Part shown: positions 2,012 to 10,434 of the stretch, one piece after another
How the letters are laid out: each line of letters starts with the position of its first letter
How positions within the stretch are numbered: position 1 is the first letter of the stretch
Source of the DNA: Candidatus Dadabacteria bacterium
GTDB taxonomy: Bacteria; Desulfobacterota_D; UBA1144; Nemesobacterales; CSP1-2
DNA length: 14,329 nt
Reading direction: 5' to 3'
Assembly: GCA_040289575.1 (NCBI GenBank)
Contig: PSLL01000019.1
Location: 1 to 14,329, forward strand
Notes under the pieces: generated by a model
Database searches by the model: none
What the model saw: only the letters and a program-made list of their open reading frames with translations
What the model was told of the DNA's origin: nothing
Position numbers and translations under genes: made by a program

Positions 2012-2142
2012 GAAACCGTGATAGATTTAAAAACTCAGAGGTTAAAGACCTCATTCAATCAATAAGACCTCCAATTCCAAACGCCGTGCTATTGCCAATA
2101 TATTATTCAGGTAAAATTAGATAAATACCTTGAGGTGAAATC

Positions 2143-2535
2143 GTGGAAGTTCAGGCTATCTGGAAAAGGAATTATCAGGTTGAAGTCAGAGCAAGACAGT
2201 TTAGCGTTCCGATTGACGAAGCCCAGGAATTCCATGGAGACGATACAGGAATGATGCCTACAGAGCTTTTTCTCTGCTCTTTGGCTTCGTGCTTCTGCCT
2301 TGCACTTGTGTTTGTCGCCAGGAAGAAAAGAATTGAAATTAAAGATATGCGCGTGAATGTGAAAGGTGAAAAAGACCTTAAAAATTTCCTTTTTTCAAGG
2401 CTTATTGTTGAGATTGATAGCTCTCTTTTGCCCGAAATTCTGCAAGGTATTATACCGCTTGCAAAAAAATACTGTTTTGTAAGCAACACGGTTTCGAAAT
2501 CGTGCCCGATAGAATACACAATAAAGAACATTTAA
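2143..2535 (+). CDS. OsmC/Ohr/YhfA-family thiol redox protein
   Basis: IDE....GDD.G..P.ELFL.SLASC (C50) and KYCFVSNT (C111); GTG start behind GAGGTG. Confidence 0.88.
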   Translation: MEVQAIWKRNYQVEVRARQFSVPIDEAQEFHGDDTGMMPTELFLCSLASCFCLALVFVARKKRIEIKDMRVNVKGEKDLKNFLFSRLIVEIDSSLLPEILQGIIPLAKKYCFVSNTVSKSCPIEYTIKNI

Positions 2536-2547
2536 AGGAGATCAAAG

Positions 2548-3003
2548 TTGCCAATAAAATTCAAGATTAAAAAAAATTATTTTCAGGATGCGCTCCGATT
2601 GATGCGTATATCGAAAATCCTTAGTGAGACGGAAGGGGTAAAGAAAGCCGTTGCTGTAATGGCAACCGAAAAAGCCAAGTTCGCGCTCGAAGATGCCGGT
2701 CTTATGACTGTGGAGATGAAGGATGCCAAAGGAAGCGATTTGGTGATGGTGGTTGAATCCGAGTCCGAAGAGATAGCCAATCAGGCACTCGCAAGAATGG
2801 AAGAGTTAATTTCATCGGGCATCTCCCAAACCAAGAAGGCTCCTCCCGATATACTACATCAGGAGATTCATGCGATAAATATCGGACTTGAGAACTTCAA
2901 GGAAGCCCTTGAAGCCCAAGGCGTAAAAGTAGTCCATGTCAACTGGCAGGTTCCTGCGAAAGGCGACATGAAATTGATAAATATTTTAAAGAAGATGTAT
3001 TAA
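2548..3003 (+). CDS. Mini-FdrA (AllF-like) protein: N-terminal and C-terminal segments of FdrA joined, without the central CoA-binding/ligase domains
   Basis: N-part IKKNYFQDALRLMRISK.L....GV..A.A.MATE..K..L...GL...DL.MVV resembles the FdrA N-terminus. C-part INIGLENF...L..QGV.VVHVNW..PA.GD..L..IL resembles the FdrA C-terminus. TTG start behind AAGGAG. Confidence 0.75.
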   Translation: MPIKFKIKKNYFQDALRLMRISKILSETEGVKKAVAVMATEKAKFALEDAGLMTVEMKDAKGSDLVMVVESESEEIANQALARMEELISSGISQTKKAPPDILHQEIHAINIGLENFKEALEAQGVKVVHVNWQVPAKGDMKLINILKKMY

Positions 3004-3004
3004 A

Positions 3005-3571
3005 ATGAGCATACGCAATCCCGAAAGGTTAAAAGAGGTTCTTTCAAATCCCAAGTGTCTCGCAAGGGCTTTTAGTAGGCATACATACGGAATGATTGCT
3101 TGGGTGGATTTGTTTGGAGGAAAGCTAAAATCATTTCGTGACATCGAAACAAAACTCGTTGTCTCCCGAATAATTGCCGACAATGCAAAGCACGCAAAGT
3201 TCTTCTGGGACAGAGCTAAAGAACTGGGTGAAAAACCGGAAACCTACAGACCTCCACAGATTGGGCAGAAGATTTATGACATACTTGAATCATACGAAGA
3301 CCCATTTGATCAATTTGCCTATGCATGGGGGTCTCTTATACATTTTTCGTCCCTGCTTGACATATACCACAGCGTGGCGGATTCAAAGAGCCGAGCCATA
3401 ATAGAAGAGGTTCAAGGAGACGTCAAGGAACACTTAAAACTTCTGGAGAGATACTTCAAATCAAATGCAGACACACCTGAGAAGAAAAAGCGCGCCGAAG
3501 AGGTAAGAACTTTAGCCCACAGAATCTACACCGATAGAGAAGATGAGGAGATAAAATGGTATGCCTCGTAG
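3005..3571 (+). CDS. Ferritin-like four-helix-bundle protein with degenerate metal ligands
   Basis: Two D-x-x-x-H helices (IIADNAKHAKFFWDRAKELG; VQGDVKEHL) about 80 aa apart, as the two DExxH motifs of ferritin-like proteins are. Starts 1 nt after the upstream stop. Confidence 0.65.
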   Translation: MSIRNPERLKEVLSNPKCLARAFSRHTYGMIAWVDLFGGKLKSFRDIETKLVVSRIIADNAKHAKFFWDRAKELGEKPETYRPPQIGQKIYDILESYEDPFDQFAYAWGSLIHFSSLLDIYHSVADSKSRAIIEEVQGDVKEHLKLLERYFKSNADTPEKKKRAEEVRTLAHRIYTDREDEEIKWYAS

Positions 3572-4406
3572 AGGAATGCCCAGCTTTGAGGAGTTGTTAA
3601 GTCCACTCCCAATCTATTCCATAAAAAACTGGTATTATAAACTCTATTCACTCTTCTTAATGACAATCGGCATGACATCAGATGGAATAAAAACTGGCTA
3701 TACATACGGCTTCGATTCGGGAATGATTATGAACTATGTATATCAGAATACTCCGCACGGGAGATTTTATATTGGAAAGCTTCTAGACAGGGTATTCCTC
3801 AATCAGATTACATGTAAAGCATTCAGGGCAATTAAAGAAATACAGAAAAATGCAATTAAAAATTATTTAGAACAGAGAAATGGAAGTCCCACGTTTATAG
3901 TTGATCTAGCTTCGGGAAAAGCCGACTACATATACGATGCTCTTAGAGAGGCAAACGCCAACGTAAAGGTTCTGCTCCGAGATATTAGCGAGACTGTGCT
4001 CAAAGAAAGCATGGCTATAGCCAGAGGTCTGAACCTAGAGGACAAGGTAAGCTATGAAGTTGCAGATGCACTTGATGTAGAGAGCCTAAAAAAGATTCCC
4101 AAGCCGAATCTTGTAGTTGAAGTCGGTTTATATGGAATCATACACGATGATGAGTTGATACGAAGGCATTTCTTTGAACTTCGGGATATACTTAACCCAG
4201 AGGCGATTCTCTTTAATGTCCAGACATATAATCCACAAATAGAGCTAATTGCGAGGGTACTCAAAAATAGCAATGGTGATCGCTGCGTGTGGCACCTCCG
4301 TCCAGCAGAGGTCGTAATAAATTGGGCAGAAAAGGCAGGATTCAAAAACCCAAAAGTCACCATGGACCCCTATGGCATCTATACAGTGGTTATGATGAGA
4401 AATTAA
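3561..4406 (+). CDS. Class I SAM-dependent methyltransferase-fold protein, YnbC C-terminal (Methyltransf_20)-like, stand-alone
   Basis: SDGIKTG..YGFDSG...NYVYQN.P.G...IGKLLDR.FLN, SAM motif I IVDLASGKADY, LRD, DALD, GLY, PQIELIARVL, D.YGIYTV. Overlaps the upstream gene by 11 nt. Confidence 0.85.
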   Translation: MPRRGMPSFEELLSPLPIYSIKNWYYKLYSLFLMTIGMTSDGIKTGYTYGFDSGMIMNYVYQNTPHGRFYIGKLLDRVFLNQITCKAFRAIKEIQKNAIKNYLEQRNGSPTFIVDLASGKADYIYDALREANANVKVLLRDISETVLKESMAIARGLNLEDKVSYEVADALDVESLKKIPKPNLVVEVGLYGIIHDDELIRRHFFELRDILNPEAILFNVQTYNPQIELIARVLKNSNGDRCVWHLRPAEVVINWAEKAGFKNPKVTMDPYGIYTVVMMRN

Positions 4407-4478
4407 TGCGAATTCATCAAACTCTGAGATTTTTAGGCAATATCAATAAGTCGAGTAAGTTTTATGGGAGGCACTAAA

Positions 4479-5879
4479 TTGAAGAGAGAGAGATTTGTTC
4501 TGGGATGGGAAGGCAATACTGAAGAGCCAACTTTTATAAAAAACGCTCTATCAAATAGGATTAGATCGGTCATGAAAAGCCCACATGGGATGTGGAACTA
4601 CATGACGTACCGTGATGCGATAAGGATATTGGGATGGAACGCAGAAGAGATTTATAAGGAAGGCAGGGTTGACTTAGACCCAAAAGTTTGGGCAGATTTC
4701 GGTTGGATGACGTGCTATGTGGGTCCGCCTAAGAGTGCTGTGAAAGCGATGCGTGAAAAGACAAATGCATCAAATATCAATCCATACTCTCCAGACCTTA
4801 TAAACCCATTGAGAGACGCATGCGCCCGGATAAAGCTTGGACGTGAAAGGAGTAGAGACTTTGAAGTCATAGGAACAGAAGGCGGACAGGCAGGGATTTC
4901 ATACGCACTTCAGACACTTATAGACCCCGGCGATGAGGTGATCATTACCGATCCCGGATATTTTCACTTTGAATCCGCAATCCTGATGGCAAGGGGGGTG
5001 CCCATAAAGATTCCCCTAGGTTCTAAAAATGGATACCGTTTAAACCCGGATGAATTAAAAGGTTATATTACGCCAAAAACAAAGGTGATAATCGTTTGTG
5101 ATCCACTTAACCCTTTCGGTACCGTGCAGACAAAAGACGAGTTGATTGCCCTCATTGAGATTGCAAGAAAAGGCAACATCATAATAATCGACGACATTAC
5201 ACACAACACTCAGAGAATTGACCCTAATTCTCAGCACTATCCTATGAGCTCCCTCTGGAAGGAGATAAACACAGACAATGTGATCTCAGTCTTCAGCGTC
5301 TCCCATGGATACGGAATGGCCGGTGTTCGCATTGGCTTTCTTGCGGGTCACACGGAGATTATGAGGGCATGCCTAATATCAAAAACCTCCTTGACAAGGC
5401 TTAATACCAATCTCATCTCTCAATATGGGGCGCTGGCGGCCTTAAATGACGAGGATTATATTAAGAAATCAGAGGAAATAATAAGGCGTAACTATAGTCA
5501 CATAAGAGAAACGATAAGCCAAATCAAAGACCTGTTCATTCCAGTTGAACCCAAATATGGCTTTTCCGTAGTTGTAGACGTTTCCAATACGGGCACAACA
5601 GCACAGGAATTGACCATTGCCCTTTTTAAACACCGCGTAGCCGTATATCCGGGAGACGGATTGGGCAACGTTGGCGCGACTGAATACATCAGGCTCAATA
5701 TCTCCCGCCCCGACATCTGGGCATTTGGACACCTCCGTAATATGCTCCCCCTGGCAATTGAAGAGGCAAGATCTGGGATCTATCGCAAGGGTGTCATACA
5801 ATTTTTTAGAGAAAAGAAGACAGAGCGGGCGGAGAGAATCATACAGAAGATGAAAGAGATACATTTGGCAGATGAATGA
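4479..5879 (+). CDS. Fold-type I aminotransferase class I/II-like enzyme with His replacing the PLP-binding Lys
   Basis: PGDEVIITDPGY, DPLNPFG, DDITH, FSVSHGYGMAGVRIG (canonical S-x-S-K-x-x-G-M-x-G-x-R-x-G) and YIRLNIS. Start probably TTG 4479 behind GGAGG (4467-4471); ATG 4464 is an in-frame alternative. Confidence 0.85.
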   Translation: MKRERFVLGWEGNTEEPTFIKNALSNRIRSVMKSPHGMWNYMTYRDAIRILGWNAEEIYKEGRVDLDPKVWADFGWMTCYVGPPKSAVKAMREKTNASNINPYSPDLINPLRDACARIKLGRERSRDFEVIGTEGGQAGISYALQTLIDPGDEVIITDPGYFHFESAILMARGVPIKIPLGSKNGYRLNPDELKGYITPKTKVIIVCDPLNPFGTVQTKDELIALIEIARKGNIIIIDDITHNTQRIDPNSQHYPMSSLWKEINTDNVISVFSVSHGYGMAGVRIGFLAGHTEIMRACLISKTSLTRLNTNLISQYGALAALNDEDYIKKSEEIIRRNYSHIRETISQIKDLFIPVEPKYGFSVVVDVSNTGTTAQELTIALFKHRVAVYPGDGLGNVGATEYIRLNISRPDIWAFGHLRNMLPLAIEEARSGIYRKGVIQFFREKKTERAERIIQKMKEIHLADE

Positions 5880-7119
5880 TATTGACGGCGTTTCTATTGA
5901 CAGACTTGTCGAGGAGTACGGCTCACCCATCTTTACCGTTTCCGCAAAGACGCTTAGAAATAATATCCGTGCATTCAAAGAGGAATTCTCTAAAAGGTAT
6001 CCAAAAGTAGTAATCGCCTACTCGTATAAAACCAACTGCCTCCTTGGCATACTCAGCATAATACACAGAGATGGGGTCTGGGCTGATGTGGCTTCAGGTT
6101 TTGAATACAATCTGGCAAGGGCAATTGGCGTGCCTGGAGAATCAATTGTCTTCAATGGCCCATACAAAAAGAAAGAGGAACTCAGGAAAGCCGTTAAGGA
6201 AGGGGCCTTAATAAATATAGACCATATTGACGAACTCAAACTGCTAGAGGAGATTGCCCACGAACTTCATGGAACAATTGATATAGGGATTAGGATTAAT
6301 GCAGATGTCGGGATTCATCAGTTGTCAGATAGATTTGGCTTTAACCTCGAATCTGGCGAGGCGATTCAAATTGTAGAGATGTGTACCGGGAAGAAATTGC
6401 TCAGGATAGTAGGGCTTCATATTCACCTTACGAGTTACATAATTGAACCTGATAGTTCAGAAAATACCTCTCCTGCAAAGAGAGTAAAACTCATCTGGCC
6501 CAAGAGTTCAGATATGTACAGAGAGGCCTCAAAAAAGGTTGTAGGACTCGTAGAGGAAATCAGAGAAAAGTTTGGAGTAAATGTAAAGTATGTAGATATA
6601 GGAGGCGGTTTTCCAGGTGTTGACTCTTTGGCTCCTTATGTTGGGGCGATAGTTGAACCGATTCTTGAGAGGTTTAGTCAGTATTTACCAACTCTCATCT
6701 TAGAGCCTGGAAGAGCAATTGTAAGGGATGCTATGCATCTTATAACGACTGTTGTCGGTGTAAAGGAGTTTCCAAGCGGAGAAAGGAGAATAATAATTGA
6801 TGCCGGAATCAATCTTCTTCCCACATCACTCTGGAGGTGGCAGGAGATAGAACCGGTATCAAAAGCAGAAGGCGGTTTAAAGGAGACTACGGTCTATGGA
6901 CCACTCTGCCTTCAGACGGACATAATATCAAGGGCAAAACTCCCGCGACTTAAATCGGGAGATAAACTCGTCATAAAAAACGTTGGGGCATACAATATTT
7001 CTCAATCCAGTTCATTTATATTCCCTCGCCCCTCAGTTTTAATCATAGAGAATAGAGAAGTAAGGATTCTAAAGAGGAATGAGAAGGTCGAGGATGTGTT
7101 CTTATTTGAAAAGGTATAA
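5872..7119 (+). CDS. Fold-type III PLP decarboxylase (Orn/DAP/Arg family; DAP-decarboxylase/MccE-like)
   Basis: YGSP, AYSYKTN (PLP Lys53), FNGPYK, IRIN, RFG, GLHIH, DIGGGF, EPGRAIV, DAG.N, GPLC..TD, GAY. Overlaps the upstream gene by 8 nt. Confidence 0.9.
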   Translation: MNDIDGVSIDRLVEEYGSPIFTVSAKTLRNNIRAFKEEFSKRYPKVVIAYSYKTNCLLGILSIIHRDGVWADVASGFEYNLARAIGVPGESIVFNGPYKKKEELRKAVKEGALINIDHIDELKLLEEIAHELHGTIDIGIRINADVGIHQLSDRFGFNLESGEAIQIVEMCTGKKLLRIVGLHIHLTSYIIEPDSSENTSPAKRVKLIWPKSSDMYREASKKVVGLVEEIREKFGVNVKYVDIGGGFPGVDSLAPYVGAIVEPILERFSQYLPTLILEPGRAIVRDAMHLITTVVGVKEFPSGERRIIIDAGINLLPTSLWRWQEIEPVSKAEGGLKETTVYGPLCLQTDIISRAKLPRLKSGDKLVIKNVGAYNISQSSSFIFPRPSVLIIENREVRILKRNEKVEDVFLFEKV

Positions 7120-7233: not shown

Positions 7234-9060
7234 ATGAACTACAAAAAAATAAAGTTAAACCTGATATTTTGGACTCTTATAATTGCCGTATTGGCTTCTC
7301 TTATCTCATGCAGTGTCGGAGATAACACTCCCCCTGCACCTATTGAGGATTTGAGCTTAAATCCTCCGCCTAGGCAACTTAGTTGGACAGCAACCGGAGA
7401 CAACGGACATTCAGGGACAGCAACAATCTATGACCTACGGTTTTCTCAGATCAGTGCTGAAGATGTAATAAAGAATTTCTCAAGCGCTATACACGTAGAA
7501 AATCTACCAAAACCCGCTCCAGCCGGGACAACGCAGAGCTTTCTTCTCCCGAGGATTGATACTACAGGAACTAAAAACTTTTTCTTTACTCTTGATGTTC
7601 GTGATGAGGTGGGGAACAACTCAGGTCCATCGAATGTTGTTGAGACTCAGACGCCCCTGGTTCCTGTAGAATTTCGGAGCAATGCAACCGGAAGCTGTTT
7701 TGGAGCGGCGGTCAGTAGCGGCGATTTCAACGGCGCTGTAAATAAAAACCTTAACCCATTTAGCCCTTCTGCCACGCCATCTGTTACTCCCAGTAACCGG
7801 ATTGAGGGCATCGCTATTGGTGATCCATGTCTCGGCAGGGTTTATATATTCTTTGGCGGAAACGATCTGTCTGGGGTTCTCGATGCCTCAACCGCAGATG
7901 TAACTATAATCGGCAATGCCAGCGACCGATTTGGGGCTACAGTCACCGGTCTCGGAAATGTTGGCGGCGATACATCGGATGACCTAGCAATAGGAGCTCC
8001 GGAATTCAATAACGGAACGGGCGCGGTTTTTATTATATTTGGCAGCGGCAAATGGAAGCACGGCTCACCCGTAACCATAGACCTTACAAACGGAGCTAAA
8101 CCGAATATCACAATTACAGGGGAAAACGTCGGAGACAAATTTGGAACCTCCATCGCAAAACTAGAAGGCGGAAGCTCAATACCGGTGCTTATAGGCGCGC
8201 CCGGGGCTGACTCTCAAAAAGGCAGAGCCTATTATATCTTCTTGAAGGATATAAATCCAAACACATCTGCTAGCCAGGCCAAAGCCATATTCCTTGGAGA
8301 GTCGGCAGGCAATATGTTCGGTCTTACTCTAGCTAATACGGGTGATTTCAATGGCGATGGTTTCTTTGATTTTGCCGTTGGTGCCCCAGCGGCTGGAAAG
8401 GTATATATATTCTTCGGACAAAAGAACATTGTTGGCCAGGACCTCTCAAAGGATAAGTCCGGCGTAGTGATAATAAGCGGCAGCTCCACAGATGGGTTTG
8501 GCTCCTCTATATCAGGAATCGAGTTTACCATCTCAGGAGGAGGGGATAATATAAGAGGCGATATAAATGGAGATAAAAAGCCTGACTTTATTATCGGTGC
8601 ACCCGGCTCAAATAATAATACAGGTTCTGTTTTTCTCTACTCCGGGGCGGATATAGTCTCTGCTAAGACGAGTGGAATGCCCCCCAATTTTATTGCAGAA
8701 TTTACTGGTACAAATCCAGGAGATAGATTCGGAACCTCCGTCAGCATTCTTGGTGATATAAATCCTCAAATGATCACACGTCAAGAGACAGAGTTTACTG
8801 TACTTCTATTTAATCCTACGAATGCGGATTTTGCAGTGGGCGCCCCGGGGACATCCGGTGGAACGGGAACCGTTTACCTGTTTTTTGGACGCAATAACTT
8901 TCCGAGTACGGTCGGAGCCGCAGGGGCCGATTTAATCCTAAATGGAAACTCTCCAGGAGAGGAATTCGGAACAATAGTAACGGGCACAGGAGACTTCACT
9001 AAAGATTTTATAAACGATTTTGCCACCTCCGGGTCAGGGTTTGTTAGAGAGGAATTCTAG
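7234..9060 (+). CDS. Lipoprotein with FN3-like domain and seven FG-GAP (integrin-alpha beta-propeller) repeats
   Basis: Signal peptide with lipobox LISC (C26). FN3-like segment DNTPPAPIEDL..LSWTA.GD.G..GTA..YDLRFS...RDEVGN.S..SN. Seven FG...GAP...G.VY.FFG-type units, with Ca-loop motifs such as DFNGDGFFD and DINGDKKPD. Confidence 0.88.
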   Translation: MNYKKIKLNLIFWTLIIAVLASLISCSVGDNTPPAPIEDLSLNPPPRQLSWTATGDNGHSGTATIYDLRFSQISAEDVIKNFSSAIHVENLPKPAPAGTTQSFLLPRIDTTGTKNFFFTLDVRDEVGNNSGPSNVVETQTPLVPVEFRSNATGSCFGAAVSSGDFNGAVNKNLNPFSPSATPSVTPSNRIEGIAIGDPCLGRVYIFFGGNDLSGVLDASTADVTIIGNASDRFGATVTGLGNVGGDTSDDLAIGAPEFNNGTGAVFIIFGSGKWKHGSPVTIDLTNGAKPNITITGENVGDKFGTSIAKLEGGSSIPVLIGAPGADSQKGRAYYIFLKDINPNTSASQAKAIFLGESAGNMFGLTLANTGDFNGDGFFDFAVGAPAAGKVYIFFGQKNIVGQDLSKDKSGVVIISGSSTDGFGSSISGIEFTISGGGDNIRGDINGDKKPDFIIGAPGSNNNTGSVFLYSGADIVSAKTSGMPPNFIAEFTGTNPGDRFGTSVSILGDINPQMITRQETEFTVLLFNPTNADFAVGAPGTSGGTGTVYLFFGRNNFPSTVGAAGADLILNGNSPGEEFGTIVTGTGDFTKDFINDFATSGSGFVREEF

Positions 9061-9075
9061 ATTGGGAGGACAGTT

Positions 9076-10434
9076 CTGAAGGAATCGGATTCTGGTTCGG
9101 ATACAAAGATAAAAGGGATAAAAAAACGCCTGTTTCTCAATGCCTCATGGCTCTTCGGGGGAAAAACCCTAGCTGGTATATTTTCTGCCTTCCAGAGCGT
9201 AGTTGTAGCGAGAATCCTTGGGGTAAGCGATTTTGGACTCCTAGCTTTAATAATCGCCTATGTGGATGTACTCAACAACTTCTTTGATTTTAGGGTCTGG
9301 GAGACCGCAACCAAGTATATAGGCACATTCTGGACAAATGGAGAGAGAGAAAAAACCCTCTCTATGATAAAGCTCTCATATACAGTAGATATATCAAGCG
9401 GAATTTTAGCCTTCATTATAGCTGTCATTACGGCAAATATTGTGAGTGTGCATTTAATTCACTCCCCTCAAGCCCATACGCTTATTTGGATTTATGCCTT
9501 TAGTCTTCTTATTGACACAGCAAACCAAACCTCCGATGCGATACTCAGGGTATTTGACAGGTTCAGGCGCATCGCCTTTGTCTCTTCTTTTAGCTATTTA
9601 TTTAGACTCGTTTTAATCTCCATTGTCCTCTACTTAGACACGGGCATAAAAGGGGTGCTATTCTCATATGTGGCGTCAAGTTTTGTGGGATTCTCAATCA
9701 GACTCCTGATCATATCAAAAACCCTACAGGAGAACGGGCTTGAAAGATGGTGGAGATCAAGCCTGAATCTGATCAGGAATCAGTGGAAGGAGATAGCGTG
9801 GTTTCTCGGCAACACAAGCCTTACAGGAACCCTAAAGATGGCAAACGATAACCTCCTAGGCGTCCTTGTGCTCGGATACTATTCTGGAAAAGAAGGAGCC
9901 GCATATTATAAGATCGCAAAGTCGTTTGTAAGAATAATGATACAACTCATAGACCCACTCTACGAGGCTATATATCCGGAGCTTGTAAGGATGTTCAGCG
10001 TAGGGGCTACAGGGGATTTTAGAAGGCTCCTGAATACATCAACAAAAAGCGTGGGCAAAGTTATGATCCCAATTGCCATACTCATCTTAATACTTTCTGA
10101 TTATCTAATAGAGATTATATTTGGAAAGAAATACCTTCCCTCATCAAACACCCTAAGAATAGTGACCATTGCCGTCTTAATCTCACAACTGACCTTCTGG
10201 ACAAGCCCGGCATTACTCGCTTTTGGAAAGGCCGGGCTTAGGAACTTAGTCAACTCAGTTTCTACTGCCGCCTATATTGGATTTCTGTTTCTCCTTGTAC
10301 CAAAATACTCATATATCGGAGCGGCTTGGGCATTCTTAGTAGGCAATGCGATAAGCTCAATAATATCTCTTTGGATTATGAGAAATTCATTAAGGATGGG
10401 AAATAAAGAGAAGCTAAAGGTTCAGGCCACATAG
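9076..10434 (+). CDS. Wzx/MOP-superfamily oligosaccharide flippase (polysaccharide biosynthesis protein), probable CTG start
   Basis: Multiple hydrophobic TM segments, G.Y..A motif, YPEL, IFG..Y. The reading frame continues upstream of the track's GTG 9262 through the Wzx-type N-terminus KRLFLNASWLFGGKTL...ARILGVSDFG. The SD GGAGG (9065-9069) lies 6 nt before in-frame CTG 9076. Confidence 0.85.
   Translation: MKESDSGSDTKIKGIKKRLFLNASWLFGGKTLAGIFSAFQSVVVARILGVSDFGLLALIIAYVDVLNNFFDFRVWETATKYIGTFWTNGEREKTLSMIKLSYTVDISSGILAFIIAVITANIVSVHLIHSPQAHTLIWIYAFSLLIDTANQTSDAILRVFDRFRRIAFVSSFSYLFRLVLISIVLYLDTGIKGVLFSYVASSFVGFSIRLLIISKTLQENGLERWWRSSLNLIRNQWKEIAWFLGNTSLTGTLKMANDNLLGVLVLGYYSGKEGAAYYKIAKSFVRIMIQLIDPLYEAIYPELVRMFSVGATGDFRRLLNTSTKSVGKVMIPIAILILILSDYLIEIIFGKKYLPSSNTLRIVTIAVLISQLTFWTSPALLAFGKAGLRNLVNSVSTAAYIGFLFLLVPKYSYIGAAWAFLVGNAISSIISLWIMRNSLRMGNKEKLKVQAT

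Follow-up and report, generated by a model that had tools for sequence, protein, structure and literature searches.

Six genes at positions 2143..7119 of the window, by which we mean the whole 14,329-nt stretch of Candidatus Dadabacteria DNA analyzed here, are the 3' module of an operon of about 20 genes, which is of the Nit1C/gpr type, lacks a nitrilase, and carries an AllFGH carbamoyltransferase together with a carbamate kinase. The module is real and conserved in two distant lineages, and we regard it as part of a Nit1C variant with a candidate new cofactor route. We lean towards the view that the role of the module is to provide a small thiol carrier of anionic nature, either coenzyme M (CoM) or something closely analogous, and that it thereby replaces, without homology, the bacterial CoM genes xcb. 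The genomic context favours a thiol cofactor containing sulfur over a lipid or over the amine that had been considered as the product in an initial annotation of the six genes. A literature search made outside subscription journals and supplements found no paper on the module, no bacterial CoM route other than xcb and no His-type class I aminotransferase; the initial statement that no named pathway has this gene set stands as regards the module, with the amendment that its parent is an operon of Nit1C/gpr type.

The six-gene module and its parent operon

The block consists of six intact open reading frames (ORFs), all on the + strand, and its position and spacings were reproduced as first annotated. 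They encode an OsmC-like thiol protein of 130 aa (2143..2535; PF02566, E 1e-19), mini-FdrA of 151 aa (2548..3003; a partial NCBIfam FdrA match), a ferritin-like helical bundle of 188 aa that resembles aldehyde-deformylating oxygenase (3005..3571; fold taken from a structure model), a YnbC-type class I S-adenosylmethionine (SAM)-binding protein of 281 aa (3561..4406; Methyltransf_20, PF12147, E 3.6e-53), a protein of class I/II aminotransferase fold with 466-471 aa, in which His281 stands for the Schiff-base Lys (4464..5879; Aminotran_1_2), and a fold-III decarboxylase of 415 aa that depends on pyridoxal phosphate (PLP) and keeps its Lys (5872..7119; Orn_Arg_deC_N). The OsmC, Methyltransf_20, Aminotran_1_2 and Orn_Arg_deC_N matches passed the Pfam cut-offs. 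The gaps between successive ORFs are 12, 1, -11, 57 and -8 nt, and the 57-nt gap becomes 72 nt if the aminotransferase ORF starts at TTG 4479.

Conservation of this arrangement was examined in 46 genome loci that had been collected by a search with the aminotransferase and whose titles are mostly Dadabacteria or Thermodesulfobacteriota. The methyltransferase gene was present in 46/46, the ferritin-like gene in 38, the decarboxylase gene in 36, mini-fdrA in 35 and osmC in 33, most absences being contig ends or paralogous type-2 (CoM-type) copies; the arrangement is far beyond chance. Median ratios of nonsynonymous to synonymous substitution rates (dN/dS) across the six genes were 0.11, 0.13, 0.13, 0.13, 0.09 and 0.17, calculated for each gene from the 31-48 of its 528-990 pairs that were not saturated, and indicate purifying selection. 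Because dN/dS is low and residues are invariant across homologue sets, the genes are under selection and not in decay, as had been expected at the outset; local decay was rejected on the basis of synteny, dN/dS and the conservation of His281 described below.

The gene order of the parent operon, read from twenty regions that were picked because their contigs carried these genes, begins with GNAT, AIRS-like, XRE-cupin, AllG, FdrA, carbamate kinase, (amidohydrolase), NitB and radical SAM genes, continues with a CoA-disulfide-reductase (CoADR)-like flavoprotein, a small ORF, AllH, a glycosyltransferase, osmC, mini-fdrA and the ferritin-like gene, and ends with the SAM protein, aminotransferase, (cysK) and decarboxylase genes. 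It was found in Dadabacteria and Thermoleophilia. The 5' fourteen genes lie on contig C81 in the window's genome, and the orthologues of NitB (TIGR04044), NitD (TIGR04043), NitE (TIGR04045) and NitF (TIGR04049), which are on C81 there, are contiguous with the module in relatives; these four and the MSMEG_0565-family glycosyltransferase (TIGR04047) all score over their cut-offs, and AllG (PF06545), AllH (PF11392), FdrA (NF004760) and carbamate kinase are likewise present. The glycosyltransferase gene lies at most 2.5 kb from osmC in 27 of the 31 loci with enough upstream DNA, the other four being close relatives in which the module is detached as in the window.

Co-occurrence in 120 genomes of the phylum, whose kin are not independent, gave a similar picture: the ferritin-like gene was found in 53, mini-FdrA and the aminotransferase each in 52 and the radical SAM gene in 50, and 66 genomes hold none of the four. 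All 50 genomes with the radical SAM gene hold the ferritin-like gene (49) or the aminotransferase gene (48); four genomes gave no radical-SAM match, and in two of them the 5' genes run to the contig edge. In one genus represented by 36 genomes, the four genes all occur in the same 9. A self-contained system of six genes, as first annotated, was rejected on the grounds of operon order in relatives, this co-occurrence and the linkage to the glycosyltransferase gene. Its boundaries were also incomplete, since a cysK-like gene follows the aminotransferase gene in 30 of 39 informative loci and 13-14 more genes are normally found upstream.

For the second lineage we used the best 80 of 223 confirmed metagenome loci with a relative of the ferritin-like gene, which are soil contigs of 68-77% GC and mostly short. 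These contain the ferritin-like gene (80), the SAM protein (65), OsmC (64), the glycosyltransferase (41), the aminotransferase (38) and, more rarely, FdrA (28), the decarboxylase (10), NitB (10) and radical SAM (7); the named relatives of their aminotransferases belong to Solirubrobacteraceae and Thermoleophilaceae. No relative of the module was found in viral contigs, and no cluster of the amidohydrolase type on plasmids.

The Nit1C/gpr cluster has been described by Podar (2005; PMC1199592), for M. smegmatis MSMEG_0565-0572 (PMC6039565), in PMC11049912 and as Synechocystis sll0783-0787, and the AllFGH enzyme as a catabolic transcarbamylase, namely an oxamate carbamoyltransferase that works with AllK in E. 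coli (PMC11326118). The parent operon shares NitB, NitD, NitE, NitF and the MSMEG_0565 glycosyltransferase with the described clusters, but it differs in that no nitrilase of subfamily 1 (NitC) or other nitrilase is present among the annotated ORFs of the C81 cluster and a PF04909 amidohydrolase, for which the PDB gave no match, occupies its slot beside NitB. It further adds AllFGH, carbamate kinase, the CoADR-like flavoprotein and the module, none of which is among the seven described Nit1C genes.

The mini-FdrA protein clarifies how the carbamoyltransferase is built. It is a copy of the N-terminal domain of FdrA (residues 1-90) joined to a C-terminal strand-helix tail (about residues 100-151), and the part from residue 95 to residue 150 aligns with the tail of E. 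coli FdrA (3DMY 418-473, E 0.001). The long FdrA on C81 aligns only up to residue 400 of 3DMY, i.e., without the tail, and in 21 Dadabacteria regions the tail was found on the mini protein only, while in each high-GC locus where AllG was matched (4/4) the tail and the N-terminus of AllG form one in-frame fusion. When long FdrA (95-515), AllG and the tail were modelled as a complex, the score was 0.90, compared with 0.56 for the best control, and passed a mark that 116/157 solved complexes and 2/215 mismatches reach; the runs agree in at least 97% of contacts, the predicted local distance difference test score (pLDDT) of the partners is at least 91, and most contacts are with FdrA residues 100-184. 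This pass may be a memory of 3DMY, where the tail sits in one chain. On the evidence of homology, fusion and model, mini-FdrA has a structural role, as the third fragment that completes an AllFG(H)-like carbamoyltransferase encoded elsewhere, and the alternative of a repurposed enzyme, proposed initially, was rejected by the tail homology to 3DMY, the fusion to AllG and the end of long FdrA at residue 400. Mini-FdrA itself is without the FdrA ligase core, which is encoded in trans and not lost. The parent operon resembles E. coli AllFGH with AllK in carrying AllG, AllH, FdrA and carbamate kinase, but differs in the AllF tail, which has been split off: in Dadabacteria it resides on a 151-aa protein of its own, and in loci of the Thermoleophilia type it is joined to AllG. 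The split tail shows in addition how the subunits are organised in the AllFGH enzyme family.

Module copies in CoM clusters and conserved residues

Three relatives (G006, G008 and G079) carry a paralogous copy of the module, consisting of methyltransferase, His-aminotransferase, CysK, ferritin-like and decarboxylase genes, in an epoxyalkane:CoM-transferase (EaCoMT) cluster at the usual place of the xcb genes. The second copy in G008 is free of any Nit1C gene, and its cluster encodes in order aldehyde dehydrogenase, CoA-transferase a/b, acyl-CoA synthetase, SDR, HTH-MEDS, EaCoMT (MetE-like), the flavoprotein 2-KPCC, SDR, SAM protein, His-aminotransferase, LLM, CysK, a second MetE-like protein, CoADR, ferritin-like protein and decarboxylase. 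The EaCoMT is 57.5% identical to Xanthobacter 2-hydroxypropyl-CoM lyase. The 2-KPCC matches 1MO9 (E 1.5e-137) and keeps the Cys pair and two Arg motifs, which presumably bind the CoM sulfonate; the C-terminal motif is unmatched in G079. Identities to the clusters of Nocardioides JS614 and Mycolicibacterium NBB4 are 46-50% for the CoA-transferases, 42-53% for the synthetase and 38-41% for CoADR; the SDRs, MEDS and LLM also match, and the aldehyde dehydrogenase has no match in these two clusters.

The JS614 and NBB4 clusters carry five xcb genes (PMC8727900), and G008 has in their place five module genes, four of which are 67-80% identical to those of the window. The module copy resembles xcbA-E (Wu 2022; PMC9457059) in its position among orthologous accessory genes and in being a set of five genes including a PLP enzyme, but differs in having no gene of ComA type or of the fumarase superfamily. 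ComA is absent from G008, whose genome is 98% complete, and from G079, and no xcb operon was found in the relatives with a CoM-type copy. The six window proteins have no sequence similarity to the JS614 and NBB4 clusters, homologues of XcbB, C, D and E were not found in the module cluster, and xcb queries among the fetched loci matched only unlinked ComA-family genes. The conserved hypothetical gene of xcb was found in 0/5 genomes, with G006, G008 and G079 among them, an empty result without its own control, though the query does match six xcb plasmids; dcyD was not found in G006, G008, G079 or G081, and adsL gave only a 32% match elsewhere in G008.

Among the 120 genomes, EaCoMT occurs in three (G006, G008 and G079) and 2-KPCC in two (G008 and G079), and the latter two combine the module, EaCoMT and 2-KPCC without another CoM operon. 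The CoM-type block of G006 starts right behind osmC-mini-fdrA, in an arrangement that spans three contigs and whose order is inferred; one module appears to serve both clients there, because the genome has a single ferritin-like and a single aminotransferase match. The operon of G081 has the ferritin-like, cysK and decarboxylase genes without the pair of SAM protein and aminotransferase, and the only aminotransferase of this genome is a type-2 copy elsewhere. What remains constant in the module is a core of the ferritin fold together with the His-aminotransferase, and both contexts also have a CoADR-like reductase; the osmC gene was found only in the Nit1C-type context. Three side observations concern these clusters: in the CoM-type block of G006 (locus L171, 14150-17641), three tandem MetE/EaCoMT-like genes stand beside thiolase-like, hydrolase-like and acyl-CoA ligase-like genes; genes resembling F-type conjugative transfer, as read from the sequence, flank the cluster of G008 (L149, 4318-11655; L141, 13098-16887), which suggests that it is located on an integrative element; and an LLM gene 71% identical to that of the G008 block is found alone in the window's genome (contig C22, 18612-19589, -).

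In the His-aminotransferase, His281 stands at the SxSK motif position where the P. horikoshii aminotransferase has the PLP Lys. It is present in 120/120 close homologues (own protein included), 21/21 proteins from high-GC loci and 120/120 distant homologues, so that the substitution is conserved among orthologues as had been proposed, and the Lys motif is kept in 7/7 alignable paralogues of the same genome, one of them offset by a gap. Residues N216, H247, S278, S280, R289, K307, R312 and R410 are invariant in both sets of 120 homologues, and D244 is found in 239/240; N216, D244, S278, S280, R289 and R410 are kept pocket residues, and H247, K307 and R312 are specific to the family. The protein is thus of fold type I with the pyridine Asp, the phosphate Ser/Arg and the carboxylate Arg all present and only the Schiff-base Lys replaced. 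K124 as a substitute for this Lys was rejected because it is absent in 120/120 distant homologues; K307 is possible in this role. The substrate would be an amino or oxo acid, because the alpha-carboxylate Arg is kept; K307 and R312, whose positions we take to face the partner active site in aminotransferases, would suit an anionic side chain. ColD, E1 and SpnQ, which we assume to be DegT-family enzymes acting on NDP-sugars, are the closest comparison. These active 3-dehydratases, dependent on pyridoxamine phosphate (PMP), also have an aminotransferase-related fold with His for the catalytic Lys, the His serving as acid/base for eliminations (PMC8987622), but sequence and fold place the window protein near class Ib, and its alpha-carboxylate Arg is retained. 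Since His281 is invariant and the pocket is intact, the non-canonical B6 chemistry that had been suggested is plausible.

The ferritin-like protein has likewise lost its canonical residues. Its model (pLDDT 93) best matches 5UX2, an aldehyde-deformylating-oxygenase-like protein (Z 17.7, root-mean-square deviation 2.6, 171 aligned), with TenA and HDO folds within 2 Z of this match, and a Foldseek search with the model returned no ferritin below E 0.001. Where a relative of 29% identity that has the canonical ligands carries its four Glu, the window protein has M30, N60, L111 and V140, and the di-iron set E / ExxH / E / ExxH is therefore lost, all four Glu being replaced; the conserved pocket consists of R25, H26, N60, H63, H113, R178, E179 and E182. 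A metal site of four His in this fold was weakened as a candidate, because the fourth, H143, is lost in 48/48 high-GC relatives. A sister family (P0250, P0260, P0264 and P0271) keeps most canonical Glu/His ligands. All three canonical features first listed as missing from these scaffolds are truly absent, and their absence is conserved; that of the FdrA ligase core is explained by its being encoded in trans.

As for the other proteins, the best solved relative of the decarboxylase is the N-citrylornithine decarboxylase FslC (7KH2, E 3e-49). The window's decarboxylase has no Glu after the catalytic Cys, a residue which in this family presumably binds the distal amine, and its gene is optional in relatives. 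The Cys pair C50 and C111 of OsmC is kept in 33 Dadabacteria and 54 high-GC relatives. The SAM protein gave only weak PDB matches, and its SAM motif D-L-A-S/A-G-x-A/G is matched in 40/45 relatives.

Candidate thiol route and rival explanations

From the observed gene content, linkage, residue conservation and positional swap with xcb, we infer the chemistry of the proposed route throughout as follows. The thiol would be supplied by five proteins, i.e., the SAM protein, the His-aminotransferase, the ferritin-like protein, the decarboxylase and a CBS/CysK-like protein whose gene is gone from the window. A sulfonated or thioether amino acid would be formed by beta-replacement of the CysK/CBS type, for which a housekeeping paralogue may act in the window's genome, and/or by transfer of a SAM-derived group, and the decarboxylase could optionally trim it. 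The His-aminotransferase would then bind PLP/PMP without a Schiff-base Lys, K307 and R312 holding the anionic tail, and His281 would act as acid/base for a C-S or C-O elimination, a role like that of XcbE with chemistry like that of ColD. The metal-free ferritin fold, OsmC and the CoADR-like flavoprotein may deliver and recycle the free thiol. The client encoded on C81 would load a nitrogen-containing one-carbon unit on this thiol, and AllFGH, completed by mini-FdrA, would phosphorolyse the product to carbamoyl phosphate, from which carbamate kinase could give ATP, NH3 and CO2 under nitrogen limitation; the CoA-ligase fold of FdrA fits thioester phosphorolysis. A stronger form of the proposal, which we put forward tentatively as possible, is that the module is a further, independently evolved route to CoM itself, based on a class I B6 enzyme devoid of the Schiff-base Lys, a metal-free ferritin fold and a SAM protein, and that in Dadabacteria and soil Thermoleophilia the nitrilase-less Nit1C/AllFGH pathway then uses CoM as its carrier.

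Several points weigh against a thiol or CoM route. The CoM-type (type-2) aminotransferases form one clade (7 rows, SH-aLRT, an approximate likelihood ratio test, 100) in what is a quick tree only, which means a single recruitment event. The scarcity of EaCoMT and 2-KPCC among the 120 genomes has been mentioned; the window's genome gave a match to neither of them, and G006 gave none to 2-KPCC. An unlinked ComA-family gene exists in G006 and in the window's genome, where it is 25% identical to xcbB, and the cell could import CoM. The cysK gene is absent from the window and from 80/80 high-GC loci; where it occurs, the cysK partner scores 348 and 360 bits against the 600 of cysteate synthase CapA (NF053679) and 361 and 392 bits against the 510-bit cut-off of the CBS model, and no gene passed the cut-offs of sulfonate-forming enzymes. 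In informative high-GC loci of the Thermoleophilia type, the decarboxylase is skipped in 8/18 and the SAM protein in 4/68 cases, the former also showing that decarboxylation, initially proposed as the last step, cannot be an obligatory one. Canonical Nit1C clusters manage without the module: NitD is found in 511 plasmid records, among which the aminotransferase has only two 30% matches. The known CoM routes work without a SAM enzyme (PMC9457059). A side observation on the contig with the ComA-family gene in the window's genome (C61, 1-5500) is that it opens with ABC-transporter-like genes of archaeal (Nitrososphaera) type, possibly a bin contamination.

The module may instead be a catabolic funnel, which strips nitrogen from an amino-acid-like substrate by decarboxylation and ColD-like deamination with release of NH3 and passes a carbamoyl compound to AllFGH and carbamate kinase; in the CoM cluster, it would break down a nitrogen-containing epoxide/CoM adduct, with CoM being imported. 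Nit1C/gpr operons are induced by nitrogen starvation (PMC6039565), AllFGH is catabolic as described above, a sigma-54-like promoter precedes the amidohydrolase gene in 3/15 upstream regions, the window's genome included, against 0.01 in shuffles, the substrate of FslC is an N-acylated ornithine, and no alkene monooxygenase was found in five genomes, in a search whose control was silent. However, we consider this explanation rather unlikely, since it leaves the module at the xcb position with the xcb genes missing unexplained, and in Methylohalobius xcb genes are present even in EaCoMT clusters that lack a monooxygenase (PMC11507031).

We give less credit to the idea that all genes of the operon together build a sulfur-containing metabolite or cofactor that is glycosylated, acetylated, carbamoylated or cyanated, and to which the module contributes the amino-acid-derived arm. 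Carbamate kinase and AllFGH would then run forward, and the AIR-synthase-like protein would dehydrate as HypE does, an analogy to HypE/HypF that is our own assumption. In favour of this idea are the genes of GT4 glycosyltransferase, GNAT, radical SAM, DsrE-like and AIRS-family type, which pass the Nit1C-family cut-offs, and the location of osmC directly after the glycosyltransferase gene in both phyla, but the second module copy of G008 travels without any Nit1C core gene. It also seems improbable to us that neither the His-aminotransferase nor the ferritin fold is catalytic and that both serve a complex as scaffold or ligand-binding subunits. While ligand-less beta subunits with ferritin fold (PaaC, MMO/ToMO beta) score Z 13.8-14.8 and the loss of H143 and the structural nature of mini-FdrA are in line with this, an invariant His at the catalytic position and cofactor- and carboxylate-binding residues that hold across 45-50% identity fit catalysis, ColD, E1 and SpnQ are active with the same replacement, and no partner di-iron alpha subunit was seen among the annotated cluster genes.

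Should the proposed thiol route be true, xcb would have a substitute not homologous to it, and with this a new cofactor pathway and new B6 chemistry would be at hand. The Nit1C/gpr cluster, for which an explanation has been lacking since 2005, would gain a concrete carrier molecule, and CoM, whose synthesis genes have been reported from methanogens and alkene/epoxide users only (PMC11507031), would as this carrier have a role outside methanogenesis and alkene oxidation. The module is present in 53 of the 120 genomes of the phylum, and 223 confirmed metagenome stretches contain a relative of its ferritin-like gene, so that it could matter for nitrogen and sulfur cycling in soil and marine environments.

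Regulatory elements and neighbouring genes

In the window, a promoter-like element GCTAT ... GGTAAAATTA is found at 2086..2119 (+) upstream of osmC. As judged by eye in upstream regions and without a statistical score, it is common to the window and loci L001, L002 and L003 and partly present in L007, L009, L014 and L140, and it may drive the module where this is detached from the 5' half. A sigma-70 scan did not pick up this element, and the sigma-70/terminator scan was overall at chance level. In front of GNAT, the first gene of the operon, a strongly conserved promoter/operator element TTGACT...TAAAGTTGATA...TATAGT lies at about 2845-2900 of locus L047 (contig C81 of the window's genome); judged by eye, it is present in 14/14 upstream regions seen, and it is likely the site of the XRE-cupin regulator. 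The same locus has at about 9000-9016 a perfect sigma-54-type motif, TGGCAC-N5-TTGC, before the amidohydrolase gene, which is also found in L142 and L138.

The genes that flank the module in the window are outside the conserved operon and encode a YdjC deacetylase (216-923), a MORN-repeat protein (1268-2011), an FG-GAP lipoprotein (7234-9060) and a flippase (9262-10434). In one high-GC cluster, NitB and the amidohydrolase gene are separated by an ORF of 211 aa that matches no Pfam family (L065, 3900-4535, -); a gap of similar size occurs in other high-GC loci and not in the Dadabacteria operon. The small conserved ORF of about 82 aa (L047, 13989-14243), which gave no family match and always follows the flavoprotein gene in both lineages, is possibly a counterpart of NitG.

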